NCBI GenBank assembly: GCA_964597545.1
Contig: CAZQXN010000005.1
Span: forward strand, 12,647 to 76,646
Length of the DNA stretch: 64,000 nucleotides
Source: an uncultured Planctomycetia bacterium
Lineage (GTDB): Bacteria > Omnitrophota > Gorgyraeia > 1-14-0-20-64-10
Reading direction: 5' to 3'
In this document: one piece after another, positions 427 through 28,899 of the stretch
Position numbering within the stretch: position 1 is the first letter of the stretch
How the letters are laid out: each line of letters starts with the position of its first letter
Made by a program: the position numbers and the translations under genes
The notes under the pieces: model-generated
Seen by the model: the letters and a program-made list of their open reading frames with translations, nothing else
The model's database searches: none
Told to the model about the DNA's origin: nothing

Positions 427-1092
427 CTATCTTTGCTCCCTCATAAGCATAAAGGCCTCTGCCGCGGCATGACCGCACTGCGCCCCACGCACCCTGGCCA
501 GCGCCTCCAACATCTCGGGACTTCTGGGATGCGGAAAGGGCCGGCTCTCCCGCTCATAAGCTTTCATGGCTGCGCACTTGGTCTTAAGCTCCTTGTCAAT
601 CTTCACGAAAAAATTGGGGGTAAAGGGTACTGCAGTACCCGGGAAAACCTGATGCGTTGCTGATGGGATTTCGTAAGCCAGAATGCGGCGCACAAAGGGA
701 ACCGCAGCTGGGCGCAGGGCGATGTTGGCGGCATGGGCAGTGATCCGGTGATCTTGATGCAGATCCCCTGCGTGCGGAATCAAGATCGATTCCGGCTGGA
801 TTTGGGCTGCCAACTTCTCAAGCAGATCCAAAAGCTCGGTAAAGCGCTCACCTAAGCGTTCATCCGGCAGGTCAAAGAAATGCAGCTGTTGGTACCCCAA
901 GCACTTCTGTGCGGCCCGGGCGCTTGCCTTTTCTGCCTCAATGGCGGCCGGGTCATAGGTGCGCTGATAGGCGCGATTGCACAGGACGGCGACGTGCACC
1001 TCCTCCCCCGCTGCCACATGCCGGGCAATGGCACCCCCGCAGCCCAATACCTCGTCATCCATGTGGGGCGCAACGACAAGAAGCTTAGCCAC
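427..1092 (-). CDS. LmbE/PIG-L family N-acetylglucosaminyl deacetylase
   Basis: 221 aa. HMDDEVLGCGG motif near the N-terminus and an HxxH block are typical of PIG-L/LmbE. GTG start at 1092. The stop overlaps the downstream WbqC-like start (ATGA-type). Confidence 0.8.
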   Translation of the reverse strand: MAKLLVVAPHMDDEVLGCGGAIARHVAAGEEVHVAVLCNRAYQRTYDPAAIEAEKASARAAQKCLGYQQLHFFDLPDERLGERFTELLDLLEKLAAQIQPESILIPHAGDLHQDHRITAHAANIALRPAAVPFVRRILAYEIPSATHQVFPGTAVPFTPNFFVKIDKELKTKCAAMKAYERESRPFPHPRSPEMLEALARVRGAQCGHAAAEAFMLMREQR

Positions 1093-1765
1093 TCAACTGC
1101 CCTCCTGAAGGTTGTAATGTGCGAAGTGTTCGGAATTCCTCCGGCGTGGCACTCAAGGCATGGTCCCGTATGACTTGCGACTCCTTGTTCAGGGTGAAAT
1201 GCTTCTCGATGTAACTTGCCCCGCGCGAGAGCGCGCAGAAACAAGCAGCCAGATCCCGGCAATGATCACTGTAGCCAAAAAAGCCAGACCGATCAAAGCG
1301 GTCCGGAAAATCAACAAGGTCGTAAGCTTCAGTGGGATATTTGGAGCGGCAGTAGATGTAGTACAGCTGCCCCTGAGGCGGGCCAAAGGGCCAGCCTGGT
1401 TTGTCCCACATGCCAAGGGAGACATAAGTTTCCTTCCCCTCAGCCAAGATGCGCTCACACAAGTCCGGCCGATCCACCACGGTGCGGGAAGCGATCTTGT
1501 ATCGGGATAGCTTCACCGCATGCGCCCAGGTGAGGGCCTCGTCACTGAAGATCGAAGCGAACAGCTCAATGCCGGCCTGGTCGCACCAGCGCTTAAGTGT
1601 CAGCACGCGCTCCTCATCCATGGCATTGATCTCACTTGGGCCCGAGCGCCAACCGAACTGAAACTTGGCCAGGTCAGCCCCGGCCTGCTTGGCCTGTTGG
1701 ATGAGCCGGCGGGCCAGCTCCCAATCTCCGTCGTGGTTTAAACCGATCTCAGCGACAAGCAGCAT
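1085..1765 (-). CDS. NeuB-family (N-acetylneuraminate synthase-like) TIM-barrel domain protein lacking the C-terminal SAF domain
   Basis: 226 aa. VAEIGLNHDGDWELARRLIQQAKQAGADLAKFQ, SDH and EKHFTL motifs of the NeuB/PseI/SpsE family are present. The ORF ends right after the barrel with no SAF/antifreeze-like domain. Confidence 0.65.
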   Translation of the reverse strand: MLLVAEIGLNHDGDWELARRLIQQAKQAGADLAKFQFGWRSGPSEINAMDEERVLTLKRWCDQAGIELFASIFSDEALTWAHAVKLSRYKIASRTVVDRPDLCERILAEGKETYVSLGMWDKPGWPFGPPQGQLYYIYCRSKYPTEAYDLVDFPDRFDRSGFFGYSDHCRDLAACFCALSRGASYIEKHFTLNKESQVIRDHALSATPEEFRTLRTLQPSGGQLSG

Positions 1766-2690
1766 CCAGGGGCTCCAGGCATTCTTTAAAGGACAACGTC
1801 ATCTCCACCATGCCGCGCCGCAGATGAAAATCCCCTGTGCTCTGCGTATTGAGGCCCGGAACGGCCGTCACCGCATGGCGGAATCCTGCGGATTTAAGCA
1901 GCTCAATGGTTTCATCGTCAAAATGGCGCGTTTCCCCCTCTGGGTAGGCAAACAACTCCACGGAAGTCCCAAGCTTTGACTCTAGGGCTGCCTTGGAGGC
2001 GCCAATCTGCCGCTCTTTTTCCCTGCGGGGCAGATGCGACAAGACCGGGTGATCCACGGTGTGTGCGCCGAATTGACAGAGGCCCGTTTCGCGCATCTGA
2101 TGGATCTGATTCCAGGTTAAGGTTTGATAATCCTCATAATCGTAGCGAGGCGAGACCTCGCAGCTGAGCTCCATCTCCTTGATGACGGATTCCGTCAGCC
2201 CTGGGGTGGTCTTCAAGAGCAGCTTGATGGTTTTTAAGGCCGCCTCTTTTTCCTCCAGACTGCGCAGAGAGAAAGTTCGATCCAGCGAAGGAAGGATCGC
2301 CTCCGGCAATTCGGTTTCGTTGATCAGGTACTCCAACTTGTCCACCCAAAAGATCCTGGGGGTGTCCACAAATCCGGAAGTCAGAAAGAATGTGGCTGGA
2401 ATTTTGTGCTCCACCAAAATGGGAAGGGCCACGGTGCAGTTGTTGGCAAAGCCGTCATCAAAGGTCACCGCGACCGCTCGAGGCGGAAGCACCCCGTTGG
2501 TTCGCACCTTGAGCAGCTCTGAGAGCCCCATTACGGTATATTCCTTTTCGAGCTGGGCCATTTGGCGCGCAAACACCTCTGCCGTCAAGTGCTTACGCGA
2601 GCAGTTGGCAATGCCGTGCTGCATGGGCTCACGCGTCACGCCATGATAGAGAAGAATGACAAAGGGGTTTTCAGTTGAGTGTTGCGACAT
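1749..2690 (-). CDS. polysaccharide deacetylase (NodB homology domain)
   Basis: 313 aa. TFDDGF...N and HTVDHP blocks characteristic of carbohydrate esterase family 4 / NodB. Confidence 0.75.
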   Translation of the reverse strand: MSQHSTENPFVILLYHGVTREPMQHGIANCSRKHLTAEVFARQMAQLEKEYTVMGLSELLKVRTNGVLPPRAVAVTFDDGFANNCTVALPILVEHKIPATFFLTSGFVDTPRIFWVDKLEYLINETELPEAILPSLDRTFSLRSLEEKEAALKTIKLLLKTTPGLTESVIKEMELSCEVSPRYDYEDYQTLTWNQIHQMRETGLCQFGAHTVDHPVLSHLPRREKERQIGASKAALESKLGTSVELFAYPEGETRHFDDETIELLKSAGFRHAVTAVPGLNTQSTGDFHLRRGMVEMTLSFKECLEPLDAACR

Positions 2691-3381
2691 GGTCTTGAAG
2701 CCTTTGATCGGCCAACGTGAGTTTGTCCTTTGGAATCATCGAATAGTACTGAGAGCGAGAAAGGTCCTGGGGCACTCCTGTCGACAGATGCCCCGTTTTA
2801 AGCTCCTCCAGCACCTCTTCCGCAAGTTCGGCCGCCAAGACCGTTGTATGAAAACGGATGTGGTGCGCGCGCATGTCGCGCGTAAGCCTCAATTTCTTCT
2901 GACGCAGGATCGGTCCGGTATCCAGACGTTGCGCCAGCCTGTGTAGGGTGGTGCCGATCTTCTCAAAATCACCCAGATAAAAAGCCCAGAGATTGGAATC
3001 CAGCCCCCTGTAGTTCGGAAGAATGCCGCGGTGAACGTTCATGCTTAAGCGGGGCAGCGAAAAGAGTTCCTCTGCCACTTTGCCGGTGCCAAAGGTCACT
3101 AAGAAATCCGGATTGAATGTCCGGATTTGCTTGAAGCAGCCCGCATCATTGACGCTGCGGACTTTGAACAGGTTGCTCTGCCCCGAAAAGTCTTTCGGCA
3201 GCGCCTCAAAAAAACGATCCTCATAACGATCGCGGAGTCGTTCGAAAGCCTCATCCTCCGCCTGGTGTGGGGGGTTCGGCGGATCCTGCTCCAAGACGAC
3301 CACCGTTGACGATCCTTGCGCCAGGCGGTTGGCGAAGTAGCGGTGATGCTTGGTGTCGGTGGTCAAGATCACTCCCTTCAT
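2671..3381 (-). CDS. formyltransferase-domain protein (Fmt/PurN-like), putative sugar N-formyltransferase
   Basis: 236 aa. NVHRGILPNYRGLDSNLWAF resembles the N(I/V)HPSLLPxYRG catalytic loop of the formyl_trans_N family. Confidence 0.55.
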   Translation of the reverse strand: MKGVILTTDTKHHRYFANRLAQGSSTVVVLEQDPPNPPHQAEDEAFERLRDRYEDRFFEALPKDFSGQSNLFKVRSVNDAGCFKQIRTFNPDFLVTFGTGKVAEELFSLPRLSMNVHRGILPNYRGLDSNLWAFYLGDFEKIGTTLHRLAQRLDTGPILRQKKLRLTRDMRAHHIRFHTTVLAAELAEEVLEELKTGHLSTGVPQDLSRSQYYSMIPKDKLTLADQRLQDHVATLN

Positions 3382-4790
3382 GGCGAACCCAATGGGGTTT
3401 TTACAGCAGGCAAGCGCTTAAGAAGGGCTTCTTCGGTTGGCTGCAAGTCCCCATGGCCTTTGATTCGCAAGCTTTCCTCCAGGGACATGACGATGTGGCC
3501 GGTCTTTTGGGTGGAGGCCATTTTTTGATCTTGAAGGACATCCCGCCAAAATACCTTGATGGCGCCGTTGTCTACATACAGCGCCTCACGCTCTAAGCGG
3601 ATCTTCTGGTGCATCCCGGGGTTTAAGGGCTCCAGTCCATGTGCGCGGTGGGCAAAATGGAGATCGTAATCTTCATAGACACTTAAAACTGTGTCTGCGT
3701 TGTAGAGCAGCAGGGTGTCCACGGCCTTTTGAATGTGTTCTGCCCGGCGCAGGGGGGTGTGGAGATTAAGTAAAATCAAGATGTCCGGGAAAAACTGATG
3801 CCCCTTTTCCAGAACCTCCACCGCGTGATGCAGGACTTGGGGGTACCATACCTGCGGGCCGGAAAGGTCCGCGGGGCGCAGCTCAGTTATGACCCCTTCC
3901 CTGCCTTGGCAATGCGCTACCACTTGGGGGTCATCGGCGCTGACCAAGATCTGCTCAAAAAGCTGAGCCTCTCGCGCGGCATCCAGCGTCCAATCGATTA
4001 ACGGTTTTCCGGCAAATTCCCTCAGAACGATGTTGGGCATCTCCGGGTAACTGTTCTTAGCCGGCACAACCGCTGTGATTCTGGGCTTCACCTTGCCCTG
4101 GCTTCGCTTGGCCAACTCTCGCTTGATTTGACTGCGCGCAGAAAGTATTCGGTTTTGATCGCGGGAAATCTCCTGAGAATGCTGCCGATAGTAAAACAGG
4201 GGTGTAGAGACATTGGCCACCGGATATCGGTGCATGACCTTAAGCCACAGCTCGTAACCATCCTGCACCTCTGTTGTTTCGCTGTAGCCGCCGATGCTTT
4301 TTAAGATCCGCCTTCGGACCATGGTGCAGGCGCCGTGGGCCGGCAGGTCCAGGAGCTTCGCCTCTTCCCCAATTCGCTTGCGCTGCTCGACTCCCAAGAC
4401 CTTGCCTGCTTCATCCACATACAGGTAGTTCGGATAAACCAGGGCCGCCTCGGGGTGGCGATCCAGATAGCTTGACAAGACCAGCAGTGCGTTTTCGTCC
4501 AAATAGTCATCGGCATCCAGGCGCATGAAGTATTCCCCCCGCGCCGCCTCCAGGGCGGTGTTGGCGCATGCCTGCAGGCCGCGCGATGCCGGATGCTTAA
4601 GAAGACGGATTTTCTGGGGGTACTTTGCAGCGAAGCGTGCCGCGATTGAAGCGGTCTCATCCTGCGACCCATCGTCCACCACCAGCAGTTCCCAGTCTGA
4701 AGCGGTTTGGGCCACTACGCTTGCAATGGCCTGCTCCAGGAACCTGCCGTACTGTTGGCAGGGGATGTAGATTGTGGCCTTAGGGCGCAT
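3378..4790 (-). CDS. bifunctional family-2 glycosyltransferase / acylneuraminate cytidylyltransferase-like protein
   Basis: N-terminal GT2 signature (ATIYIPCQQYGRFLEQAIASVVAQT...LLVVDDGSQDET...RLDADD). C-terminal CTP_transf_3-like block (ITAVVPAKNSYPEMPNIVLREFAGKPLIDWTLDAA...ILVSADD). Start re-placed at internal M (MRPKATIYIP, 4790), just after the upstream gene stop. Confidence 0.7.
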   Translation of the reverse strand: MRPKATIYIPCQQYGRFLEQAIASVVAQTASDWELLVVDDGSQDETASIAARFAAKYPQKIRLLKHPASRGLQACANTALEAARGEYFMRLDADDYLDENALLVLSSYLDRHPEAALVYPNYLYVDEAGKVLGVEQRKRIGEEAKLLDLPAHGACTMVRRRILKSIGGYSETTEVQDGYELWLKVMHRYPVANVSTPLFYYRQHSQEISRDQNRILSARSQIKRELAKRSQGKVKPRITAVVPAKNSYPEMPNIVLREFAGKPLIDWTLDAAREAQLFEQILVSADDPQVVAHCQGREGVITELRPADLSGPQVWYPQVLHHAVEVLEKGHQFFPDILILLNLHTPLRRAEHIQKAVDTLLLYNADTVLSVYEDYDLHFAHRAHGLEPLNPGMHQKIRLEREALYVDNGAIKVFWRDVLQDQKMASTQKTGHIVMSLEESLRIKGHGDLQPTEEALLKRLPAVKTPLGSP

Positions 4791-6165
4791 GAGATTCTCC
4801 TGGTTCTTGAAGGGCGCTGTAGAGCAGCTCTGCGTACCGCTTATAGCCGAGTTGATTAAAGTGGCCTGCGTCTCCATAGAGCCGCTCCTGACGTGCCAAG
4901 CGGCGCAGGTCCGGTGTCACATCGACATAAGCGAGATTGTGCGCGCGCGCAATCCCGGAAAGAACCTCCGAGAGAATGCGCTGGTGTTCGAAGCTTTCGG
5001 TCCATACTTGAGGATCATCGGTTCCGGTGATGCGCTCTGCCTGGTCTGCGTATACCGTGGCCGCCGAGGGAATGTAACTTAGGCAAACCTGAGCCGAGGT
5101 CTGACTGCGCAGATTCTCCAGAGTCTTCGCCACAATCGTCAGTCCCGCGGAAAGCTCATCGCCCGCCTGATCCTTTGCGAGCAGGTCCGGTGAGCAATGC
5201 TCCAGAGGGATGCGCACTTGGGAGGCGCCGATGGTCAGGTGGGCTTCGGGCATCGCCCCGGCTTGAGCCTGAAGGGTTCCCTGAAACAAAGAGGCAATCG
5301 CAGATCCTCTCACCCATCGATCGCTTCGGCGGTTAGGGCGTCCATAGTACTGCTCTAGGGGAGCTGCCCGATCCATGACGCCCTGCAGGCGCAGGGCATC
5401 GGAGAGGTCGTTGCCCTCATAGAAATTCACAATGACAAGATCCGGCCTCTTTTGGATGCCAAAACGCTCAAAGGCCAACAACCACTGTTGAGGTGCTCCG
5501 CCCAGGTCGCCTAAGCTGTATGCCGTTAAGCCGGCGAGTTTCGAAAAGTGCTCGGCGATCGTCACACGGCTCGTTCCGCGGGTGAAGGAATCCCCGAGAA
5601 AAAGAACATCCAGCGTGTTGTTTTTGCTGTAGAGTCCGGGGCGGTTCCTAAAGCCCGCCTCATCGACTACGACTGGAACCCAGCGATCTCCGGCATCCTC
5701 AGTGCGAAGGAGCCCCGAATGATTTGGGGTCAGCCTACGCAGATAGCCCTCTGTCACGTAGTTTCCGGTCAGCAGATCAAAGGGAAGCGCCGGCTGATTG
5801 GGTTTTCCAGATCGGGCTGCATTCAGCGCTGCAGCGCGGGCAATGATGCGGGGTGGCATCTCCTGAAGAAGCTGCTCAGGCACGAGGAAGGGGTTCTGCC
5901 AGAGTGCAAACTCCGCCAGAGCGATAGAGCCGGCACCCCCGACAAAGAGCGCCAAGGCGCGCTTGCTCCAAAGTTCGGATCGACTGATGAAGAGAAGGCC
6001 CCCCGCAAAAAGCGCCATCCCCGCAAGGAACGCAAAACGGGTTTTGGAATATATCCAGATGGCAGCATCCACGCTGGGTTCCAAGGCGAAGAGGGCGGTT
6101 GCGAGCAGCAGAATGATCCCCAGCCCCCGCGTTACTCCCTGCGCCACAAGGGTTGCTGATAACAT
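4780..6165 (-). CDS. membrane-anchored SGNH hydrolase, AlgX/AlgJ-like (putative glycan O-acyltransferase/esterase)
   Basis: N-terminal hydrophobic helices, then a GDS block (VLFLGDSFTRG), a GND block (NFYEGNDLSD) and a C-terminal DAGHFNQLGY resembling the DGHW(N) signature of AlgX/AlgJ. Start probably at the internal M at 6165. Confidence 0.55.
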   Translation of the reverse strand: MLSATLVAQGVTRGLGIILLLATALFALEPSVDAAIWIYSKTRFAFLAGMALFAGGLLFISRSELWSKRALALFVGGAGSIALAEFALWQNPFLVPEQLLQEMPPRIIARAAALNAARSGKPNQPALPFDLLTGNYVTEGYLRRLTPNHSGLLRTEDAGDRWVPVVVDEAGFRNRPGLYSKNNTLDVLFLGDSFTRGTSRVTIAEHFSKLAGLTAYSLGDLGGAPQQWLLAFERFGIQKRPDLVIVNFYEGNDLSDALRLQGVMDRAAPLEQYYGRPNRRSDRWVRGSAIASLFQGTLQAQAGAMPEAHLTIGASQVRIPLEHCSPDLLAKDQAGDELSAGLTIVAKTLENLRSQTSAQVCLSYIPSAATVYADQAERITGTDDPQVWTESFEHQRILSEVLSGIARAHNLAYVDVTPDLRRLARQERLYGDAGHFNQLGYKRYAELLYSALQEPGESHAP

Positions 6166-7937
6166 CAGGCCCACCGCCTCCAGTCTAATTCCACGCAAAC
6201 CTCTGCTGGGACAGAGCGCTGCATGATGTGCGCATTCTTTTGAAGGAGCTCCTCATGGTTTTGGAAGAAGCTCACCAGATCATCCATCCGATAGGTCAAC
6301 CCCTTGCCCTGCTTCTTCATGTCCACCAAAAAGGATCGGATCACTCCGTAGTCTTCCCGAGTATCCATGGTCAAGCGCCAGGAGCGGGCGTGACCGGGGT
6401 CGATCAGGGGGATGTGGCTGGAGCGAAATTGCTCCAGGTGAGCCGTAAGATAGCTTGTCAGGTATTCGCTTACTGAGAGGTCGCGCGCTGCTGCGTGGAT
6501 GTACCGCAGCAACCGGACGTCCAGCACTTCAAAATCCGCTCCCTTGGGCACTGCCTTTAAATCCGAATACTCGGCGCCGCTGGTCAGATGATGTTTGACG
6601 GCGTGATCCACGTACTCCGGATCAATCAGAATGTCGTCTCCTGTGATCCTCAAAATCGCATCTACAGGTTCCCGGCCCAGAGCACCGATCATCCGGCCCA
6701 AGACATCCTGGGTCGGGCCGCGATAACAGCGCACCCCAACTGCCTTCGCCGTTTGTGCCAACACAGCATCTTCGGCAGCCTCAGTTGTGCAGAGCACAAT
6801 CCGGTCTAGGCCTTTGGCCCGCTGAAGGCGCCGCAGCAGGTGCTCGATGGCCGGCATCCCGGCCACATCCAGCATGGCCTTGCCGGGCAGCCTCTCGGAA
6901 GCCATGCGAGCTGCGACCAGCGCCCAAACGGTCTCCTCAAGATCCAGGCGATTGACCGGATGCTCTTCGGGGATATCCCGCTTAAGCTTTTTACCCGCAA
7001 GGAGATTCAGCTCGAGAGGCTCGGCCGAGACGGCCTCTACACGCTTCATCACCAGATCTTCTGGGGTGAGGTTTTCTCCTGCCTGCATGGATCGGTTGGT
7101 CACCCAATGTTTTTTGACTGCCTTGCGGTAATTCTTCTCAGCCCCACTGAACGTTACAGGAGAAACGCCTATGGCCTGCTCAATGGAGCGAACCTGCCCG
7201 ACCCAGTGAGCAAACTCATCGGGATTAAGGGATGAGTAGTAGTCGATGCCCTTCTGGGAGCGGTTCAGTGTAATGTGTTTCTCGAGCACCGTTGCCCCCA
7301 TCCCGACGGCTGCCAGCGGAACGGAAAGCGCCAAGGGGTTTTCGGCATCCACATGGTCCTCACAGCCGATTTCACACCGATCCCCAAAAAGCTCAGCCAG
7401 ATAGCGGATGCGGTCAAGATTACAGTCCTCAACAGCTGTGGGATAACCCTGAAAACCGTGCAGCAGCACCGGGCGGTGTTTGCTCTGCGAACCGGTTAAT
7501 CGTTGAACCGCTTCGGCGATCTCGGGCAAGGTGCATCCGCCAAGCCCCAAGAAGATCTTCTGGGGAGTCTTTGCCAGAGTGTCCAAGAGATGGACATTTC
7601 CCAAATCAGAAGCATGCGCCTTTACCCCGTGCACAGAAAGCTCCTGTGCAAGGGTTTGGGACTGGAGGCCGAAAACGTCGCAATAGACCCTGCCGCGGCC
7701 GCCACGGATCAGCCGAGTCAAAAGCTCCCGCCACACCTCCTGAGTAAAGGCGCGCTGCTTGAAGTGTTCAAAGCGGGAGTGCGCTCGAACCAACATCTCC
7801 TCGGGCTGGTAGACCTGGAACTTCACGGCATCTGCGCCGGCCTCAAAGGCTGCATGTGCCAGTTCAAGCGCGAGGGCGGGATCCCCCTGGTGCGCGCCTG
7901 CAATCTCCGCAATGATTTCAACCGGGGGACGGCTCAC
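6165..7937 (-). CDS. fusion of NeuB-family nonulosonic acid synthase (TIM barrel + SAF) with an acylneuraminate cytidylyltransferase-like domain
   Basis: 590 aa. N-terminal IAEIAGAHQGDPALALELAHAAFEAGADAVKFQ and EKHITLN NeuB motifs, followed by a SAF-like segment. C-terminal LDVAGMPAIEHLLRRLQRAKGLDRIVLCTTEAAED...ITGDD resembles CTP_transf_3 / SpsF-like cytidylyltransferases. Confidence 0.75.
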   Translation of the reverse strand: MSRPPVEIIAEIAGAHQGDPALALELAHAAFEAGADAVKFQVYQPEEMLVRAHSRFEHFKQRAFTQEVWRELLTRLIRGGRGRVYCDVFGLQSQTLAQELSVHGVKAHASDLGNVHLLDTLAKTPQKIFLGLGGCTLPEIAEAVQRLTGSQSKHRPVLLHGFQGYPTAVEDCNLDRIRYLAELFGDRCEIGCEDHVDAENPLALSVPLAAVGMGATVLEKHITLNRSQKGIDYYSSLNPDEFAHWVGQVRSIEQAIGVSPVTFSGAEKNYRKAVKKHWVTNRSMQAGENLTPEDLVMKRVEAVSAEPLELNLLAGKKLKRDIPEEHPVNRLDLEETVWALVAARMASERLPGKAMLDVAGMPAIEHLLRRLQRAKGLDRIVLCTTEAAEDAVLAQTAKAVGVRCYRGPTQDVLGRMIGALGREPVDAILRITGDDILIDPEYVDHAVKHHLTSGAEYSDLKAVPKGADFEVLDVRLLRYIHAAARDLSVSEYLTSYLTAHLEQFRSSHIPLIDPGHARSWRLTMDTREDYGVIRSFLVDMKKQGKGLTYRMDDLVSFFQNHEELLQKNAHIMQRSVPAEVCVELDWRRWA

Positions 7938-9142
7938 AACGCTGCCTCTTCATGGGCCAGCAGGGTACGCAGCTTCTGTGCGATCAAGCGGCCTGCCAAG
8001 CGGTGGCCCTGGGCATTCCAGTGTCCCTCGCCCAGCCGCGGACCAAAGCCGTGCAGAAAAACACCTCTGGATTGGGCCTCGCGGTGCAGCAGCGGTGCCA
8101 ACGCCAACAGGGCAATGTCATGCTGATCGGAAAATTCCTGAAGGCGCCGCTCCGGATAAAACAAATCACTTACCCCCATCTGTTCTTGAAATTGACGGCG
8201 AAGGTTGGAATCCGGATGGACCTGAATACCGTTTGATAAGGTGACCAGTAAGAAACGAGCCCCGCGAGCATGGACTTCGTCACGCATTTCAAGCAGTAGG
8301 CGCTCGGTAACGGTCCAGGCTTTTTTCCAGGTCGCATCTGCTGGGGGACGATAGACCAAGCTGTCCAAACCCGGCTCCTCCCCTGCTGTGGGGGGGAGGT
8401 TGGCTTGGGCCAAACCGCCCCGGGCATTCTGGAGCGCGTTCTTTGCGCGGCTGACAAGCTGCAGGCAGCGCACATGCTCCAGGGCTTGGTAATACAGCTG
8501 AAACGGCCGGCTCTGCCGAGTGCGCCAGGCTACATTCTTTCGGAATGAGTCGTCCAGATGCAGGCGATTGCCTTCAAGCACAAAGAAGGGGATCTGCTGG
8601 TTCTCTTCCAATTCGCGCACGTTGTTGCTGATGTCGTTTCCGGTGCAGAAGGCAAGAAGAACCACATCCGGATCATAGGCCCAGACGCGCCGGCGCAGGG
8701 TGATCAGTTCCTGAGCGGTGCCATAGCCGGAAACGCCGAAATTCATGATCTCCACAGGGCGGTCTTGGAAACCAGGGGATGCCGCCAACCCCTCTTTTGC
8801 GACCCACCAAAAGGTGCGCTCCAAGGGCATCTCCAGGGCAGCGGTATAGGAGTCGCCCAAGACGGCAATGCGTAAAGCCGATGGCGCTTTGCTCAAGTTG
8901 TGCTCCTGGTCTCTAAGCCCCTGAGAGTTGATTTGAATGAAGACTGGCTCCTCAATCTGCTCGCCCTTAAGCCACCCTTGAGCGTTGGGCCGATAAGCAT
9001 AACCCCGCTGTTCGTCAAAAACTCGAAAGGTTGGGTATCCAAAGTCAATCCCCGCCAGCCGCAATCCCGCCTCCAGGAGCAGGAACGCTGCAGTCAAGCC
9101 TCCAAACCCTAAGAAAACCCTAAGTACGCCTGAACGCTTCAT
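7934..9142 (-). CDS. SGNH hydrolase, AlgJ/AlgX-like, N-terminal signal anchor
   Basis: 402 aa. IAVLGDSYT (block I), FGVSGYG, TGNDISNN (block III) and C-terminal GEGHWNAQGH (DGHWN-like). Overlaps the upstream gene by 4 nt. Confidence 0.55.
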   Translation of the reverse strand: MKRSGVLRVFLGFGGLTAAFLLLEAGLRLAGIDFGYPTFRVFDEQRGYAYRPNAQGWLKGEQIEEPVFIQINSQGLRDQEHNLSKAPSALRIAVLGDSYTAALEMPLERTFWWVAKEGLAASPGFQDRPVEIMNFGVSGYGTAQELITLRRRVWAYDPDVVLLAFCTGNDISNNVRELEENQQIPFFVLEGNRLHLDDSFRKNVAWRTRQSRPFQLYYQALEHVRCLQLVSRAKNALQNARGGLAQANLPPTAGEEPGLDSLVYRPPADATWKKAWTVTERLLLEMRDEVHARGARFLLVTLSNGIQVHPDSNLRRQFQEQMGVSDLFYPERRLQEFSDQHDIALLALAPLLHREAQSRGVFLHGFGPRLGEGHWNAQGHRLAGRLIAQKLRTLLAHEEAAL

Positions 9143-10218
9143 GAGCGAAACACCCTTTTAAGCCAAACGAAGAACCGGGGTGAGACACGCTTGATCGCAG
9201 CCTTAGCCCCGACCCAGAGAATGCCAAGCGGAGCCCTCCAGCTGAATGCTTCACCCCCGCGGCCGATATGAAAACCGTACCAAAGCTGCCAGCGAAGCGC
9301 CCAAGCCGACTCTCCCCTCCAACGCAGCAGATGCTCCGGCGGAAGGTAGTCGCTGCGGATCAGACTCAAGGCCTTTGACTTTGCCCGGGCAGGTTTTCGG
9401 CACAAAAAGCCTGGGCCAAAGGAATTGGGTGCCCAGCTGCGGTCCAGTGGGGCGATGATCTCAAACCCGCACGCTTCAAGACACTGCTGGAGCAGGCGCG
9501 GGGTAAACATCGAGATGTGCCCAAAACCCATATGGTAGATGTTGAGATCTCGGACATCCGGAACCTCAACGTAGAGATGCCCCCCGGGCTTCAAATGCAG
9601 ATAGAAATCGGTGAGCGCGCGGTAAGGGCGCGGCAGATGCTCCAACGTGTGGTAGGAATAGAGAAAATCAACGCTTTCCGCCTTCAGTGTTGCGCGAGTA
9701 TAAGGTTCCTGGAGCATGGTTAGGCCCAACTGCTCGCGCGCAAAGCGCGCCGGGGCTTGCGCAACCTCTACCCCGGTTGCCTCCCAGCCCAACCCCTGAA
9801 ATACCCGAAGGCTTCCACCGGCTCCAGCGCCCACATCCACCATCTGACGGCCGCGACCGACTTGAATGTCCGGAAGGAGGCGCGCGATGTCGTGAAGCAC
9901 GGATTGGGTCTCTGTCTCCTCTTGGGCCGAATAGCGCTCAAGGGCATCGGCGCTGTGCTCTGCCATGTCGTCAGCATAAGTGGAAAGCCAGATGCTGTAG
10001 TCCAAATCCAGAAAGGTCAGCCCACAGCGCTTGCAGAGGCGGTAGATGACCCAATGTTGAGGCGCGTGCAGCTGCTTTCGGGCGGATAAAAGGACTTGGG
10101 TATAAGCGCTGCCGCAGAGATTGCAGACGGTCTGCTGACCCATGCGTACTGAGGAGGCTTCTGCCTTGCCGGGAAACCCTTGAGCGGTTACTGCCTTCTC
10201 AAGAACAGGTGAACTCAT
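9139..10218 (-). CDS. class I SAM-dependent methyltransferase with N-terminal Cys4 zinc-ribbon
   Basis: 359 aa. CNLCGS...CKRCG ribbon, then the MVDVGAGAGGSL SAM-binding motif. Confidence 0.7.
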   Translation of the reverse strand: MSSPVLEKAVTAQGFPGKAEASSVRMGQQTVCNLCGSAYTQVLLSARKQLHAPQHWVIYRLCKRCGLTFLDLDYSIWLSTYADDMAEHSADALERYSAQEETETQSVLHDIARLLPDIQVGRGRQMVDVGAGAGGSLRVFQGLGWEATGVEVAQAPARFAREQLGLTMLQEPYTRATLKAESVDFLYSYHTLEHLPRPYRALTDFYLHLKPGGHLYVEVPDVRDLNIYHMGFGHISMFTPRLLQQCLEACGFEIIAPLDRSWAPNSFGPGFLCRKPARAKSKALSLIRSDYLPPEHLLRWRGESAWALRWQLWYGFHIGRGGEAFSWRAPLGILWVGAKAAIKRVSPRFFVWLKRVFRS

Positions 10219-12182
10219 ACAGGCACCAAAATGGGATCCTGCCTAAAAGGGCTGGATGGGGCGCAAGGCGCATCCTCACGGGCAGTTCCCTCAACATCGC
10301 GAACCGCCTGCATGATCTCTGCACGCAGGCGCTCGATCGACTTGCCATCAGAAAAGAAGCTAAAATCTTTGGCCAACCGCTCAAGCCCTGCTTTGGGCCA
10401 AGCATTCTTCAGGAGTCTCCCGACTGCCTGCGCGACATCGTCACCGGATTTGAGGACCCAGGCTCGATTGTATTGCCCCAGGAAGCTGTCGGCCGTGCCC
10501 ATGTGGTCAAAGGCAGCGCATGGAATACCGGCAACCGCTGCTTCTAAGAGTCCTGTGGTGTGGCTGCCCCCTATGACCAAGTCGCTGACCGACATCCAGG
10601 CATAGGTGTCCAGCCATTCGGCATCGGAAGTAATGCGGGCATCTTGAGCAAGAATCTCCTCCAGGCCGAAGGCCAACCACTGGCGCTTTAGCGTTTCTGA
10701 GCGAAAGCGGCAAACCACTTGGAAGTTCCCGGTAAGCGTCTTGAGGCGCCTCAGTCCCTCAAGTAGGGCCTGGGCTCTCGAGCGCAGCACAAACCACTCT
10801 TTGAGGTTCGGCAAAAGCAGCAAGATACGGGGGTGCACAGTGCCAAACTGCCTTTGGCAAGCCTTGAGCAATTCCTGCCTCGCCGGCTTCCGCTGTGCGC
10901 GCAAGATCAGATCCGTGCGATAGGCCCCGATGGGCAACTGGCGCATGCCAGCCCAGTGCGGGCCGAAAAGATCCGCAAAGCCCTTCCCCCAAACACAGAG
11001 CCTGTGGATGGTGGTGTAGCGCATGCCCGGAAGGATTTGAGGAGCGATGGGATTTCCATGGTGCATTCCAAGGGTCAGTCGGTTGAGCTGGCGTGCGACG
11101 ATGGAGCGGACGACATGGGCCGGAGAGTAATCCTGGTACTCCAACCACACCTTATAGCTCACTGTGCGGGCAAAGCGCAGCTCCTTAAGATAGGTTCTTA
11201 TCAGTGCAGCCGAGGCAGCAGCAAACCGCGGTTCCTCCACCCAGAAAAGAGGCCGCAGTGCCAGGCTCCAGGAGCGCAGGCACAGCCCCGCCAGCTCAAT
11301 CAACCCTGCGCGGCCTACAGGCAGCTGCTTTGGGTTGACGTATCGAATCCCCTGCTCCTGCATGCGCTGACGCTGAGCCAGAAGCGCTTGGGTGCTGAGG
11401 CGCCAGTCCCCCTGGCAGAAGAGAACACGCTCTGGGGTAAGTTCTCCGCCCAGCAGCAGACCATCGTCATGTCCTGCCCACTGGGGCTCATTCGGATCCC
11501 GAAAACCTGATGTGAGCGGCATGGCCACATCTGTTTTGATGGGAGTTGCAGTCCGACGTACGCCGCCGCAGAGAATGGCCTCAAGCACTGGGTGAATGGA
11601 GAAGGCAAAAAGGTGGAAGACGTTGATTAACCCCAGGGTATGCGCTGTTCTGCGCAGCAGATGCGCAGCCCTCAACCAGAGGCGCACGCCCACTGGGACC
11701 ATTGCCTGCACCAAAGCGTCCTGAGCCAACTTGTGCTCGTCGAAGCGCTCGGGCAAGAGAACAAGCCGGCCCTCCCGCTTGAGGGCAGCCGCCGTTCGAT
11801 AGAAAAGGGTTTGGGATAAGAGCTCGGGCAGGAGCCTGAGCTTGTAGTAACGCTCAAGGCAATCAGTCTCAATTAAAACACTCATGCGCTGAAAGCTTAC
11901 GGATCTTTGCGCCGAATGAAACAGGCGCTCCATGGGCTCGGCAGAGGCCTCGTTGTTTTTGTGCCAGAGGGGCAGGAAGATCTCTTGTGGAACCTCGGAA
12001 AGATCGGCTCCAGGATTCAACCAGCGGATAAGGCGCAGGGTAGCCTGCACAATCCAAGCGGGCGCCCCCCTGCCCCCATACAGATCGTGCGGCGGGAAAA
12101 ATAGGATGCGCTGGGCGCGCACAAGGGTTCCGCAGGCAAGAAGGGTTTTCCAGATGCTGTGGCGCCCAAACAGAACGGTCAT
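10215..12182 (-). CDS. large hypothetical protein with KpsC/KpsS-like (capsule polysaccharide biosynthesis, GT-B-type) C-terminal region; candidate CMP-ulosonic acid transferase
   Basis: 655 aa. C-terminal SDLVIGGSHTTGLLEAAVAGIPCAAFD resembles the conserved donor-binding stretch of the Capsule_synth / KpsC-KpsS family. Paralogous motifs occur in the 34818 and 41226 genes. Assignment is tentative. Confidence 0.4.
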   Translation of the reverse strand: MTVLFGRHSIWKTLLACGTLVRAQRILFFPPHDLYGGRGAPAWIVQATLRLIRWLNPGADLSEVPQEIFLPLWHKNNEASAEPMERLFHSAQRSVSFQRMSVLIETDCLERYYKLRLLPELLSQTLFYRTAAALKREGRLVLLPERFDEHKLAQDALVQAMVPVGVRLWLRAAHLLRRTAHTLGLINVFHLFAFSIHPVLEAILCGGVRRTATPIKTDVAMPLTSGFRDPNEPQWAGHDDGLLLGGELTPERVLFCQGDWRLSTQALLAQRQRMQEQGIRYVNPKQLPVGRAGLIELAGLCLRSWSLALRPLFWVEEPRFAAASAALIRTYLKELRFARTVSYKVWLEYQDYSPAHVVRSIVARQLNRLTLGMHHGNPIAPQILPGMRYTTIHRLCVWGKGFADLFGPHWAGMRQLPIGAYRTDLILRAQRKPARQELLKACQRQFGTVHPRILLLLPNLKEWFVLRSRAQALLEGLRRLKTLTGNFQVVCRFRSETLKRQWLAFGLEEILAQDARITSDAEWLDTYAWMSVSDLVIGGSHTTGLLEAAVAGIPCAAFDHMGTADSFLGQYNRAWVLKSGDDVAQAVGRLLKNAWPKAGLERLAKDFSFFSDGKSIERLRAEIMQAVRDVEGTAREDAPCAPSSPFRQDPILVPV

Positions 12183-14182
12183 GCTCCGGCCTCCAGCGGT
12201 TGAGGTGCTTGAGCCGCCTTCTCAGATTGAAGCTGCCACAGCCGGGCGTAGATTCCTCCGCGGACTAAAAGGGTTTCGTGGCTGCCCTGTTCGACTAAGC
12301 GGCCCCGATCTAAGACCAAGATTTGATCTGCCTGGGCAACGGTTGAAAGACGGTGGGCGATGATCAAGAGGGTTCTACGCCGCCGCTCGGCTTCGAGCGC
12401 CTCCTGGATGAGCCGCTCTGACTCAGAGTCTAGGGCAGAGGTTGCCTCGTCCAAGATCAGCAGCTGGGGTTGGCGCACCAAGGCGCGGGCCAGCGCAATC
12501 CTTTGGCGCTGCCCACCGGAGAGCCGATAGCCCCTGTCTCCGATCACGGTGCTGTAGCCATCGGCCAGCTCCTTGATAAAGCAGTCTGCATGTGCGGCTT
12601 GCGCCGCAGCCAAAATCTCTTCCTCGGTTGCGCCGGGTTTGCCAAAGGCGATGTTGTCCCGAATGCTTGCGTGGAAGAGAAAGGGTTGCTGGCTGACTAC
12701 ACCCAGATGTTGGCGCCATGCATGCGAAGAGAGGGCAGCCAGGGGTTGCCCATCAACAACGATCTGACCCGAGGTGGGTTCGTAGAGCCTTAGCAGCAAA
12801 TCAGCTACAGTTGATTTCCCAGCGCCGGAAGTGCCCACCAGCGCGGTCATGGATCCGCGCGGCATCTCAAAGGTTAGCCCTGACACCGCAGCTGGTTCAT
12901 CTGGATGATAGGTCAGGGTGACGCGATCGAAAGCAACCTTCCCCTTGAGGCCGGAAAAATCCCTTCCGGACTCTGCGGCTCGGGTGTCTTCCGGCTGTTG
13001 CAGAATTTGATTGAGGCGTCCGATGCTGGGCCCAAAGCGTGCCAGGGTAGTGCGAGCGCTGTAAATGGATCTCAGCCGCGGGGCCATCCGATGCAGCGCC
13101 AATAAGAAGGCCAACAACGAAGGCAAGGCGGCCTGGGTTCCGGAGCCTAAAACAAAGAATCCTCCCAGCAGCAGAGCGCCTGCTCCCAGCACGGTCAGGA
13201 TATCGGTCAGGGGCTCTACGGTGCTGCCCCAAATGCTGGCAAGGCAACGGCTGCGCATCCCCTCTTGCGCCAAGCGCCCCACGGTTTGCGTGGAGCGCTC
13301 TTGTGCGGAAAAGGTATGGAGCGACCGAATGGCCGAAAGGAATTCTGTGGCCCGCTCGCTTAGGGTGACAGTTTTCTCAGTGAAGCGGCGCGCATGCTGC
13401 CCTACCCGGGAGATGGCCTTGCGCAGAGCCCAGGTCATGGCCCCGGCCAATACTGCTGCCACTGCGGTCATGGGCCAGGAAATCCAAAGCATGAGGGCCA
13501 CATAGACAGCGACCAGCAGGACGCTTCGCAACAGGACGTTAAGCTCTGAAATGATTTCATGCAAGTAATTCGTGTGGCTAAGGTAGTCGGTCAGATCCCC
13601 AAGCTTGTATCGGCTGGCAGCAGGAAAGCTTAAATGCATGACACGCGAGAAGATGCGCTTATAGGCGTCGGCCTGAACGCGGGTGTGTAGGATGGCGGCT
13701 GAGACCTCACCCAAGAATTGCAGTAGGCTGCGCAGGACCTGAAAACCGACCGCCAGAAGCACAAGGCTTAAGAACAGCGGTGCTCTGCCCAACGCCAAGC
13801 TCTCCAACCACTGTCCGAATGCACCATAAGTTGCTGCCAGCGTTTGCTCGGGCGAAGCACCCAGCACTTGAAGGCCGACAGCCAAAAGCCCAATGCTGCT
13901 GCCTTCAAAGATGGCTGCAACCAGGTTGGCTGTAAAGGCGAGGGCAAGAAAACCCCAGGCAGGACGGATCAGATCCCAGATCAAAACAAAGGGGTTACGG
14001 TTTTTTTGGATAGCGCGCTGCCGCGCCTTCGGGGAGCTAATGTTCATCACATGAACATCCCATATCCTATCTGGCTTGTCAAGGGGTTTTGAGGGGTGAT
14101 GGGCCGGCAGGCAGACACTGTAACACGTTTGAATATAAGGAGTTACAACATCAAGCCCAAGCGAATTTACACTTGAGAACAA
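12179..14182 (-). CDS. ABC exporter, fused permease + ATPase (MsbA/PglK-like type I exporter)
   Basis: 667 aa. Six predicted TM helices, then Walker A (GTSGAGKST), signature LSGGQRQRIALARAL and Walker B ILDEATSALD. Confidence 0.9.
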   Translation of the reverse strand: MFSSVNSLGLDVVTPYIQTCYSVCLPAHHPSKPLDKPDRIWDVHVMNISSPKARQRAIQKNRNPFVLIWDLIRPAWGFLALAFTANLVAAIFEGSSIGLLAVGLQVLGASPEQTLAATYGAFGQWLESLALGRAPLFLSLVLLAVGFQVLRSLLQFLGEVSAAILHTRVQADAYKRIFSRVMHLSFPAASRYKLGDLTDYLSHTNYLHEIISELNVLLRSVLLVAVYVALMLWISWPMTAVAAVLAGAMTWALRKAISRVGQHARRFTEKTVTLSERATEFLSAIRSLHTFSAQERSTQTVGRLAQEGMRSRCLASIWGSTVEPLTDILTVLGAGALLLGGFFVLGSGTQAALPSLLAFLLALHRMAPRLRSIYSARTTLARFGPSIGRLNQILQQPEDTRAAESGRDFSGLKGKVAFDRVTLTYHPDEPAAVSGLTFEMPRGSMTALVGTSGAGKSTVADLLLRLYEPTSGQIVVDGQPLAALSSHAWRQHLGVVSQQPFLFHASIRDNIAFGKPGATEEEILAAAQAAHADCFIKELADGYSTVIGDRGYRLSGGQRQRIALARALVRQPQLLILDEATSALDSESERLIQEALEAERRRRTLLIIAHRLSTVAQADQILVLDRGRLVEQGSHETLLVRGGIYARLWQLQSEKAAQAPQPLEAGA

Positions 14183-17234: not shown

Positions 17235-18259
17235 TCAGAACCCCCCACTGGTTCAACAAGGATGGGCCTGGAGAGCACGATAAGCTCAAGGGGTTTACCC
17301 TGCTGCGGCAAGAAAATCCGATTTCCAATAACGATATGTTCTGCCTCTAGGTTGTAGTAGGGTGGACCACCCGGCACAATCTCGATCTGGCCCATCAAAC
17401 GCATTCGAGCAAAAACCAGATGCACAGCCTCCGAAGCGTCCTCATGAAGCGAAACGATGGGCAGTGCGCGGGATGTCAAAACCTCCAGGATCTCAGCGCT
17501 CACTCGGTCGAAACTGTCCTGGTAAATCCAGCCGGTTCGCAGCTGCTCTATTTGGTTGGGGTCAGAAGCGCGGACGACACAGTAAACCTCCAACGGAACT
17601 GCCGGCATCAACGGCTGGTCAATCCGTATGGCATCCGGTACCAGCAGGGAGAGATCGCTTTGCGGATTGTGCAGGGAGACCGAGTAGGATCCCTTCTGGA
17701 GTGATTGAATCCGATAATAGCTGGTGACATGCTGTGAATCTGTATAGGTCTTGTAGAGGGGGGCCAGGTTTCCCAGGCGGATGTCACAGCCCATCTCCAG
17801 ATATTTCCCCTGGACGATCAATGCGCCTGTTCCCTGCGGTGTAACGCGCAAACCCACCTGGTGGAGCTCTGGTCGCCAGAGGACTTTCAGTGGGGTATTT
17901 TTATAGATCATGCGCCCTCGCCCATTCCGAATCGAGATGGACGCATAGCCCGGGTTTATCTCTACGGGCAGAGCGAAGTCAATCTGCGCCTCATTCAAGA
18001 AACGCGGCACCAGCGCATACTCCCCCACCAGTACAGTGGTGTCGCGGTCAAAACCGCTGCCGGTGAGCATAACTCGTGCGTCGGGGCCGGCTTCGGCCAT
18101 GGCAGGCTCAACACATAAGAGCTTAAGCTCTGCGCTCCCCCGGAGGGTTTGATATCCAAAATAGAGCAGCGGCAAAGCAGAGGCGAGCAGGATCCAAACC
18201 AGCAGATCCAGCAGATGCATTCGGCCGAACACGCGTCCCTGAGAATCTATAATTTTCAT
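17225..18259 (-). CDS. DUF4330-family protein (N-terminal membrane anchor, Ig/TIG-like repeats)
   Basis: 344 aa. N-terminus MKIIDSQGRVFGRMHLLDLLVWILL matches the conserved DUF4330 start. Paralog of the 19659 gene. Confidence 0.6.
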   Translation of the reverse strand: MKIIDSQGRVFGRMHLLDLLVWILLASALPLLYFGYQTLRGSAELKLLCVEPAMAEAGPDARVMLTGSGFDRDTTVLVGEYALVPRFLNEAQIDFALPVEINPGYASISIRNGRGRMIYKNTPLKVLWRPELHQVGLRVTPQGTGALIVQGKYLEMGCDIRLGNLAPLYKTYTDSQHVTSYYRIQSLQKGSYSVSLHNPQSDLSLLVPDAIRIDQPLMPAVPLEVYCVVRASDPNQIEQLRTGWIYQDSFDRVSAEILEVLTSRALPIVSLHEDASEAVHLVFARMRLMGQIEIVPGGPPYYNLEAEHIVIGNRIFLPQQGKPLELIVLSRPILVEPVGGSDEP

Positions 18260-21912: not shown

Positions 21913-21920
21913 CTGCGGCC

Positions 21921-23904: not shown

Positions 23905-24813
23905 TCATCTGGTTTTCCTTGCGGAGGGATTCGCAGGTTGTTTCAGAAGGGAGCCTTCTATTACCGACTCAGTATAAGCTCCGGGGTTTCCCTTGTCTAG
24001 GTCTTTAAAAACAGCCTGCTGCAGGGGATCCGCCTCCAAGCAGCGACGCACTTCCGGGATCTCGCGCTGCTCATTGATGCCGCTGTAGCCTCTGGTGAAC
24101 GAAACGCTCATGAGTAGCACTTCATGTTCTACAATTCGGTTCTGATCGATGGATTCGGCTCGTTCCAGGGGGGTACGTGCAAGAGCGCTGTAGCGCCCCA
24201 GGAAATCTTTCCGATAAGCCAAAATCCCAAGAATTCGTCGCAGGGGTCCCGACGCTTCTCCCGCAGGCAGCGGCAAATGAGAGAAGTCGCGCGCGCACAC
24301 CAAAATGCGGCCCGACACTGAAAGGGCGCATTTCACGATCGATCGGTCCGCAAGCTCCTCACCCCTCTCAATCCTGGCCACCGCATTCCACGCAGGGATC
24401 TCCGGCCGCTCCTGGATCGCCTGAACCAGGCGCTCCAAATCGGAGGGAAGCACCAGGATCTCATCTCCTTGAACATTGACGACATGGGTGCAGTCCAAAG
24501 CTTGGGCCGCCTCCGCAACTCGGTCTGTGGCAGCGGGATGCTTGGGCGAGGTCATGAGCACCTGGCCTCCATTTTTCTCAACGACAGCTGCGATTTGGCG
24601 ATCACAGGTGGCGACCACGACGGTAGAAAATCCGCGGCACATCAGGGTACGCCTCCGAACATGCTCAATCATCGGAAGCCCCAAAATCTCCAGGAGGGGT
24701 TTCCCGGGCAGCCGCGAAGAGCCCATTCGAGCAGGGATAACAGCTGCAATTCGAATCATTGAACGCATCATCACACCTACTGGGGTAACGTCCCGCAATC
24801 TATATTGAGGCAC
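23905..24813 (-). CDS. KdsB-like cytidylyltransferase (CMP-ulosonic acid synthetase family)
   Basis: IAAVIPARMGSSRLPGKPLLEILGLPMIEHV matches the KdsB/CMP-Kdo synthetase N-terminal motif. Real start probably an internal M (MIRIAAVIPAR). Confidence 0.75.
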   Translation of the reverse strand: MPQYRLRDVTPVGVMMRSMIRIAAVIPARMGSSRLPGKPLLEILGLPMIEHVRRRTLMCRGFSTVVVATCDRQIAAVVEKNGGQVLMTSPKHPAATDRVAEAAQALDCTHVVNVQGDEILVLPSDLERLVQAIQERPEIPAWNAVARIERGEELADRSIVKCALSVSGRILVCARDFSHLPLPAGEASGPLRRILGILAYRKDFLGRYSALARTPLERAESIDQNRIVEHEVLLMSVSFTRGYSGINEQREIPEVRRCLEADPLQQAVFKDLDKGNPGAYTESVIEGSLLKQPANPSARKTR

Positions 24814-26933: not shown

Positions 26934-26936
26934 GAT

Positions 26937-28897: not shown

Positions 28898-28899
28898 CC

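Follow-up and report, generated by a model that had tools for sequence, protein, structure and literature searches.

A widespread GT2 glycosyltransferase of NeuB gene clusters carries a remodelled domain with the fold of CMP-ulosonate synthetases

To our knowledge, little has been learned about the transferases for nonulosonic and other ulosonic acids beyond a few pathogens, and most environmental NeuB clusters have no assigned transferase. For the preceding activation step, mutagenesis of the Neisseria meningitidis cytidine monophosphate (CMP)-N-acetylneuraminic acid (Neu5Ac) synthetase (NmCSS) has shown that the D209A variant is inactive, that D211A lowers kcat 15,000-fold and that the kcat/Km of Q104 variants falls by 200- to 47,000-fold; K21 and R12 are also catalytically important, and R165 forms a salt bridge to the sugar carboxylate (PMC2901514). 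Here we analyzed a gene that joins a glycosyltransferase family 2 (GT2) domain to a domain resembling these synthetases (hereafter the fusion). It lies in a 64,000-nucleotide stretch of contig CAZQXN010000005.1 from an uncultured bacterium assigned by GTDB to the Omnitrophota; this whole stretch is referred to below as the window. The reading that we favor, with about even confidence, is that the gene encodes a GT2 transferase of a NeuB ulosonic acid pathway, whose C-terminal domain is no longer a synthetase and has been remodelled to bind a CMP-ulosonate.

The fusion gene and its parts are listed in Table 1. Two residue numberings are used, one for a 499-aa form that begins at an ATG at 4877 and one for the 470-aa form that begins at 4790 (M30 of the longer form). 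Glycos_transf_2 (PF00535) matched residues 35-195 (499-aa numbering) with 99.9 bits against a cutoff of 23.3 (E = 1.9e-28), covering positions 1-167 of the 168 in the profile. CTP_transf_3 (PF02348) matched residues 280-394 with 37.6 bits against a cutoff of 22.6 (E = 2.6e-9), over profile positions 13-119 of 217 only. The NCBIfam model for PseF (TIGR03584) aligned to residues 269-468 with 61.2 bits, below its equivalog cutoff of 205.7. As to the start site, the position at 4790 is preferred because it is used by independent gene calls (protein P0001 and L084, a near-identical syntenic JGI contig), because homologues are 460-480 aa long, which fits the 470-aa form, and because conservation in the homologue alignment begins at the PK(A/V)T strand. 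The open reading frame (ORF) extends to the ATG at 4877 (3378..4877, minus strand) and AGGAG precedes both ATGs, so the 499-aa form may also be made.

An AlphaFold2 (AF2) model built on 86 homologues (predicted local distance difference test, pLDDT, 90.4; predicted template modelling score, pTM, 0.87) was compared with known structures using Foldseek. The N-terminal domain matched 6p61 with a template modelling (TM) score of 0.93 at a root-mean-square deviation (rmsd) of 2.0-2.2 and SpsA with a TM score of 0.71-0.73, identifying a GT-A fold; a PDB sequence search with this half returned the A2 domain of K4CP (3e-22), 6p61 (2e-17) and SpsA. The C-terminal domain matched 6ifd (TM 0.84-0.86), 9t4z (0.82-0.85), 1eyr (0.80-0.81) and 9ftb/9ftc (0.80-0.81), all of them synthetases of CMP-Neu5Ac, CMP-2-keto-3-deoxynononic acid (CMP-Kdn) or CMP-pseudaminic acid (CMP-Pse). 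These matches spanned 225-233 aligned columns with E values of about 1e-16 to 1e-18 and included the dimerization sub-domain, which is present in the model as strands at residues 367-415 (470-aa numbering). A phmmer search of the PDB with the C-terminal half likewise returned CMP-NeuAc synthetases at 1e-11. The best whole-chain matches were PmHS2 and K4CP, at an rmsd of about 17-20 Å, indicating that the likeness to these proteins is limited to single domains. The first-pass annotation, which had placed a GT2 and a CTP_transf_3 domain in one polypeptide, is thus borne out by Pfam, the model and Foldseek, and the nucleotidyltransferase fold that it proposed for the C-terminal half proved to be that of a CMP-ulosonate synthetase.

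Conservation was counted in two sets, the 86 aligned family members and 80 genome loci. The latter are the best 80 of 238 genomes, are 40-61% identical to the window protein and all cover its whole length. The GT2 half of the window protein carries the motifs VVDDGS, RLDADDYLD and QDGYELWLK, which are conserved over the 86 members (the last as QDG(Y/H)ELWLK) and were seen in 61-79 of the 80 loci. Within the second motif, D92 and D95 (470-aa numbering) are invariant and D94 is at least 90% conserved in the 86 homologues, and the pattern RLDxDD occurs in 79 of the loci. In GT-A enzymes such a DXD motif implies a metal-bound nucleotide-diphosphate donor, and its invariance therefore points to a nucleoside diphosphate (NDP)-sugar rather than a CMP-sugar as the donor of the GT2 domain. 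The protein scores above the PF00535 threshold, has the GT-A fold and contains the DXD and DDGS motifs, which are all the sequence and fold features of GT2 that we examined; judged from these features, the GT2 half looks active.

The C-terminal half presents a different picture. Residues were mapped by HMMER alignments to 9ftb, 1eyr and 6ifd, which were ungapped across the signature motifs, and canonical residues are numbered as in NmCSS. The canonical loop that binds cytidine triphosphate (CTP), PARGGSKRIPRKN, is replaced by PAKNSYPEMPNIV in the window protein, and the LLQPTSPLR strand of the canonical enzymes reads LLNLHTPLR. In the loop, R12 has become Lys, as in most of the family; S15 has become Tyr (78/86 members), K16 Pro (variable in the family), N22 Val (the majority residue) and K21 Ile, the last position being Ile or Val in the family (Ile, Val or Leu in 85/86 members) and Lys in none of the 80 loci. 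Q104 is replaced by Asn (Ser in the majority; Ser or Asn in 83/86) and T106 by His, which is also the family majority. At the Mg2+ site, D209 is replaced by Arg (Gln in the majority; Asp in 0/86 members and 0/80 loci) and D211 by Lys (Lys or Arg in 82/86). NmCSS K142 was tried as a further lost residue and rejected, since its position is unconserved among the canonical relatives in the alignment.

Other parts of the pocket have been kept. The arginines equivalent to NmCSS R71, which contacts cytosine, and R165 are retained (Table 1), the Y179 position is Tyr or Phe in 85 of the 86 members, and the NGA turn of the Y-x-x-NGA sugar pocket is conserved. At the same time, new residues have become fixed: Y277, H373, Q471 and K/R473 are conserved substitutions at former active-site positions, and two histidines specific to the fusions were found (Table 1), of which His461 sits ten residues ahead of the former metal site. 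Mean pairwise identity across the family is 54% for the synthetase-like domain versus 64% for the GT2 domain, and 57 of the 226 columns of the former are at least 90% conserved. Conserved new residues at the old active site, combined with this column conservation, are the signature of a domain under strong constraint, whose pocket would have changed its job rather than decayed; both halves of the protein show strong purifying selection. Stand-alone relatives of about 230 aa retrieved with the same query carry the canonical PARGGSKGxPRKN, LQPTSPLR and SxDID motifs; among 60 aligned, K21 is kept in 55, S15 in 55, D209 in 37 and D211 in 40. Distant fusion proteins are also without the loop, yet some hold one or both aspartates, which suggests that the CTP loop was lost before the Asp pair.

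The surroundings of the fusion gene were compared among the 80 loci, 42 of which are flanked by at least 5 kb on both sides (well-flanked loci). A NeuB-family gene was present within the retrieved flanks of 70 loci, and in 41 of the 42 well-flanked ones. Adjacency to NeuB was counted with clean queries, because single linkage through NeuB-CTP fusions merges NeuB and cytidylyltransferase ORFs; in 43/80 loci the fusion has a NeuB gene as its immediate same-strand neighbor, and the 34 of these that lie downstream fall into two size classes of about 230 and 330 aa. A separate CTP_transf_3 gene was found in 69/80 loci and again in 41/42 well-flanked loci. A strict P-loop pattern was matched in 46 of the 80, and nine pattern-negative genes checked by eye all had intact loops, with variants such as ARMSASRLPGK, LARGGSKGVPRKN and PAKADSKRLPNKN. 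In some loci the separate CTP_transf_3 domain and NeuB form one protein, with either of the two coming first (for example L046:4922-6559 and L055:8213-9961), and reverse-order CTP_transf_3-NeuB-SAF proteins of 546-583 aa adjoin the GT2 fusion in other genomes. In three distant lineages with Pfam-annotated neighborhoods, the fusion is accompanied by a CTP_transf_3 gene and NeuB (arranged as CTP_transf_3, fusion, NeuB in L081), and genes for a 2-hydroxyacid dehydrogenase and an ABC exporter often come next. No recognized sialyl- or 3-deoxy-D-manno-octulosonic acid (Kdo)-transferase family was seen among the recurrent neighbors of the fusion in the 80 loci.

The window itself encodes three CTP_transf_3 domains separate from that of the fusion (Table 1), indicating that the pathway does not depend on the fused domain for activation. 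One of them belongs to a NeuB-SAF-CTP_transf_3 protein that is likely the actual synthase and synthetase of its sub-cluster, and it is such synthase-synthetase fusions that are the truly coupled steps in these clusters. The first-pass annotation had proposed that activation and transfer are coupled in the GT2 fusion; considering that K21, Q104, D209 and D211 are replaced and that nearly all well-flanked loci encode a separate CTP_transf_3 protein, this is doubtful.

According to the reading that we favor, the protein would be a soluble, inverting, metal- and DXD-dependent GT2 glycosyltransferase of a NeuB-type ulosonic (nonulosonic) acid glycan pathway, in which its GT2 domain would move a sugar from an NDP-sugar during the build-up of a ulosonate-containing glycan. 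The C-terminal half would descend from a CMP-ulosonate synthetase that has lost CTP-dependent activation, with its old metal site now occupied by Lys/Arg, Gln, Tyr and the two new histidines. Separate canonical cytidylyltransferases encoded nearby, in the window including the one fused to NeuB, would activate the NeuB product. The remodelled domain would bind the cytidine-linked ulosonate (CMP-sugar) without metal, Lys/Arg taking the place of Mg2+, and could couple GT2 transfer to the ulosonate branch: it might present the labile CMP-sugar or a ulosonate-bearing acceptor, act as a sensor, or dimerize through the retained sub-domain.

Several points weigh against this reading. The identity of the ligand is deduced solely from the contacts retained in the alignments, and the invariant DXD, by arguing for an NDP-sugar donor, gives a CMP-sugar-binding neighbor no obvious purpose. 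Asp is kept at the D211 position in 13 of the 80 loci and Lys stands at the R12 position in some apparently canonical enzymes as well, so that loss of residues does not by itself prove inactivity. In 29/80 loci neither a NeuB nor a CTP_transf_3 gene lies directly beside the fusion. Finally, literature on the fusion, on the Pfam pair and on pseudoenzyme synthetases, together with a Leptospira nonulosonic acid (NulO) paper, yielded no description or biochemistry of any member.

The absence of a recognized sialyl- or Kdo-transferase family from the recurrent neighbors speaks for a second explanation, which we consider unlikely. The C-terminal domain might be a metal-independent CMP-ulosonate glycosyltransferase, in which a histidine serves as base or acid and Lys and Tyr steady the CMP phosphate, so that the polypeptide would have two active sites and would add an NDP-sugar residue and the NeuB-derived ulosonate one after the other, in the manner of chondroitin and heparosan synthases. 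Metal-independent, histidine-based catalysis with stabilization of the CMP phosphate is how known sialyltransferases work. The fusion is the sole glycosyltransferase consistently linked with NeuB and a canonical synthetase; its former active site has been refilled by conserved H373, H410, H461, K/R473 and Y277 and has not drifted; the contacts to CMP and carboxylate are kept; and the top whole-chain structural matches, PmHS2 and K4CP, are polymerases with two GT-A domains. However, glycosyl transfer by a CTP_transf_3 fold is without precedent, the likeness to PmHS2 and K4CP holds per domain only, given a whole-chain rmsd of about 20 Å, the actual transferases could be among the unannotated neighbors, and the histidines could be structural or ligand-binding. 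That the synthetase-derived domain is a new type of CMP-ulosonate transferase, and hence the missing transferase of NeuB clusters across many environmental phyla, is accordingly a doubtful proposition; in a milder variant it would be a CMP-sugar hand-over domain that channels the labile donor.

It is quite improbable that the C-terminal domain is a ligand-free structural remnant, acting as a dimerization module or scaffold for GT2 or, by way of the family's dimerization sub-domain, as a docking surface for the neighboring canonical synthetase. The inactive C-terminal domain of vertebrate CMP-sialic acid synthetases is used in oligomerization, and in the fusion the region of the dimerization sub-domain is retained in the AF2 model, the catalytic residues are lost and in nearly every case a separate synthetase gene accompanies the fusion. 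Yet the cytosine-binding Arg (invariant in all 86 members), the kept carboxylate Arg and the Y-x-x-NGA pocket would be hard to explain without a ligand, as would conserved replacements falling precisely at former active-site positions. Least probable is a true bifunctional enzyme, whose C-terminal domain makes a CMP-ulosonate and whose polypeptide then transfers the sugar: the supported fold and Pfam membership of the domain, the tight linkage of the gene with NeuB and the part of the D-x-D site held by some distant fusions speak for it, but the equivalents of K21, Q104, D209 and D211 are all replaced, the last by a cation, and the matching NmCSS mutants are essentially dead, the PseF score of 61 lies far below the cutoff of 205.7, 41/42 well-flanked loci encode a separate synthetase and the window encodes three, and the invariant DXD of the GT2 domain indicates an NDP-sugar donor, not a CMP-sugar.

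The fusion is not confined to the window. In a search of 5.8 billion proteins the best 120 matches all had the same architecture, with 54-65% identity, and relatives span more than 100 protein clusters. In a scan with one genome per species, at least 238 species genomes from more than 15 phyla encoded a relative; the best 80 belong to the Planctomycetota, Verrucomicrobiota, Omnitrophota, Chloroflexota, Alpha- and Gammaproteobacteria, Myxococcota, Nitrospirota, Nitrospinota, Desulfobacterota, Elusimicrobiota, Acidobacteriota, Gemmatimonadota, Bacillota and Actinomycetota. Because the single-polypeptide architecture is kept in the 120 homologues and the 80 loci, the fusion is not an artifact of assembly or a frameshift, and the earlier statement that activation-transfer fusions are uncommon does not hold for the present family. 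A cultured example is found on plasmid p6 of Azospirillum argentinense MTCC4035 (WP_103041587.1, 466 aa, 37% identity), where it is annotated merely as a "glycosyltransferase family 2 protein", and many members are named "CMP-N-acetylneuraminic acid synthetase" by JGI. The family is widespread and appears uncharacterized.

Found in over 15 phyla next to NeuB and a genuine synthetase, the fusion is a concrete candidate for handing ulosonates to surface glycans or building them in. It also offers a clear example of a domain that would have shed catalysis while its ligand pocket was kept under selection. Annotation pipelines and reasoning from domains will tend to mislabel such proteins as CMP-NeuAc synthetases, and the activation capacity of genomes will then be overcounted. 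The importance of the family would rise sharply if the remodelled domain were catalytic.

All substantial ORFs with a domain match in the window (1-64000) are on the minus strand, and nearly all of these genes, more than 50, are glycan-related; three of them are NeuB genes, and the CTP_transf_3 domains number four in total. On the syntenic contig L084 the cluster runs beyond the left end of the window with WbqC, DegT, another NeuB and epimerases. The order of fusion and formyltransferase-like gene (Table 1) recurs in L084 and L085. The short NeuB-family protein of the window belongs to the class of about 230 aa, which lies directly downstream of the fusion in 15 other loci; a member is also present in the Azospirillum plasmid locus. 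Among solved structures, the nearest short one is 6ncs (290 aa). The CTP_transf_3-aminotransferase gene adjoins a canonical nonulosonate set comprising NeuB (50789-51838), DegT (53578-54861) and a PseB/LegB-like dehydratase (54783-55841). Two B12-binding radical SAM enzymes are encoded in this sub-cluster (51860-53575 and 58161-59777, minus strand), which may serve C-methylation or other radical tailoring of the sugar.

Table 1. Positions of the fusion gene, its domains and key residues, and of related genes in the window
Feature	Position	Strand	Basis
GT2 / synthetase-like fusion gene, 470 aa	3378..4790	minus	ORF call, Pfam, independent gene calls
GT2 (GT-A) domain	4158..4784	minus	Pfam, PDB sequence matches, Foldseek, conserved motifs
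DADD, the DXD metal / NDP-sugar motif of the GT2 domain	4506..4517	minus	alignment and locus census
Linker between the domains, mainly one long helix (residues 212-230, 470-aa numbering)	4092..4157	minus	DSSP on AF2 model
CMP-ulosonate-synthetase-fold domain (CTP_transf_3-like), remodelled	3414..4091	minus	profiles, fold, residue census
PAKNSYPEMPNIV, degenerate CTP-binding loop (canonical PARGGSKxxPxKN)	4026..4064	minus	HMMER alignment to 9ftb and 1eyr
Arg334 (499-aa numbering), equivalent to NmCSS R71, cytosine contact; retained in 86/86 members and 78/80 loci	3876..3878	minus	alignment and census
His410 (499-aa numbering), fusion-specific; 78/80 loci, variable in canonical enzymes	3648..3650	minus	census
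Arg427 (499-aa numbering), equivalent to NmCSS R165; retained in 73/86 members and 69/80 loci	3597..3599	minus	alignment and census
His461 (499-aa numbering), fusion-specific; 79/80 loci, A/P or variable in canonical enzymes	3495..3497	minus	census
SLRIK, counterpart of the canonical S-x-D-I-D Mg2+ site	3459..3473	minus	alignment to 6ifd and census
Formyltransferase-like gene directly downstream of the fusion	2671..3381	minus	own start overlaps fusion stop
Short NeuB-family protein, 226 aa, without SAF, keeping SDH and EKHFT motifs	1085..1765	minus	domain search
NeuB + SAF + CTP_transf_3 fusion, 590 aa, intact ARMASERLPGK loop	6165..7937	minus	Pfam/NCBIfam, loop inspection
Stand-alone canonical CTP_transf_3 (IPARMGSSRLPGK)	23905..24813	minus	130.8 bits, full-length match
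CTP_transf_3 (115 bits) fused to class-III aminotransferase, 681 aa	46077..48122	minus	Pfam

Elsewhere in the window, a 564-aa fusion of phosphoenolpyruvate (PEP) mutase with an NTP_transf_3 nucleotidyltransferase (31146-32840, minus strand) stands beside genes for SIS, transaldolase-like, HpcH/HpaI aldolase, HAD phosphatase and two SDR proteins (26298-31126); this region looks like a phosphonate or unusual sugar-acid branch of the same cluster. Near the fusion and NeuB, genes of the LarA-like (lactate racemase) family occur in 21/80 loci and D-2-hydroxyacid dehydrogenase genes in 17-19/80 (examples are L055:7065-8372 and, in the window, 20944-22422); they hint at chemistry on a 2-keto or 2-hydroxy acid function or on hydroxyacyl N-substituents. 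The window ORF overlaps another at 21921-23069 (both minus strand) by about 500 nt, and its Pfam domains begin only at residue 207 of the 492, so the true start of the dehydrogenase is probably further downstream than the listed GTG. An MsbA/PglK-type exporter homologue follows NeuB and the dehydrogenase in 16-18/80 loci, and the cluster of the window holds two such ABC exporters (12179-14182, 667 aa; 39440-41491, 683 aa; minus strand).

Weakly GDSL/SGNH-like proteins, below the Pfam cutoffs, flank the NeuB-CTP fusion at 4780-6198 (472 aa) and 7934-9142 (402 aa), both on the minus strand; a homologue of the former was found in 4/80 related loci and of the latter in 0/80. An O-acylation role for this pair is only a guess. 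In the related locus L081, an MBOAT gene is next to unannotated genes. A 655-aa protein (10215-12182, minus strand) had no Pfam, NCBIfam or PDB sequence match and recurs in 5/80 related loci; large proteins at 18256-19782, 34818-36422, 41226-43349, 44560-46080 and 55805-58156 had no Pfam or NCBIfam match. These unmatched large proteins are candidates for unrecognized transferases or polymerases.

Among known systems, the CMP-nonulosonate and CMP-Kdn synthetases (NeuA and PseF; 6ifd, 1eyr, 9ftb/9ftc, 9t4z and 1qwj) share the fold of the C-terminal domain (TM 0.80-0.86) and, with it, the cytosine-binding Arg, the SPLR strand, the carboxylate Arg, the Y-x-x-NGA pocket and the dimerization sub-domain. 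Unlike them, the fusion is without the GGSK...KN loop, the Q104 equivalent and both Mg2+ aspartates, has new conserved Tyr, His, His and Lys/Arg residues, and carries its domain behind a GT2 domain with a score far below the PseF cutoff. Since it falls short of the equivalog cutoff and has neither the CTP loop nor the metal ligands, it should not be classed as NeuA, PseF or LegF. Single-domain GT2 proteins (SpsA and EpsE of Bacillus subtilis, TuaG, WcaA and the Leptospira protein 6p61) have the full GT2 signature and fold in common with the N-terminal domain, but no synthetase-like domain at the C-terminus.

The bifunctional polymerases K4CP (chondroitin polymerase of Escherichia coli K4) and PmHS2 (heparosan synthase of Pasteurella multocida) resemble the fusion in having two Rossmann-like nucleotide-sugar-binding domains per chain, and among PDB sequences the A2 domain of K4CP matches the GT2 half best (3e-22). 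Their second domain, however, is a true GT-A domain with its own DXD, whereas that of the fusion derives from a cytidylyltransferase and has none; the placement of the domains also differs. Natural fusions are found elsewhere in nonulosonate pathways, NeuA with an esterase domain being one. Closest in setting are the NeuB-CTP_transf_3 and CTP_transf_3-NeuB proteins, which join pathway steps in one chain within the same clusters, as here; these proteins keep the catalytic loop, whereas the GT2 fusion does not.

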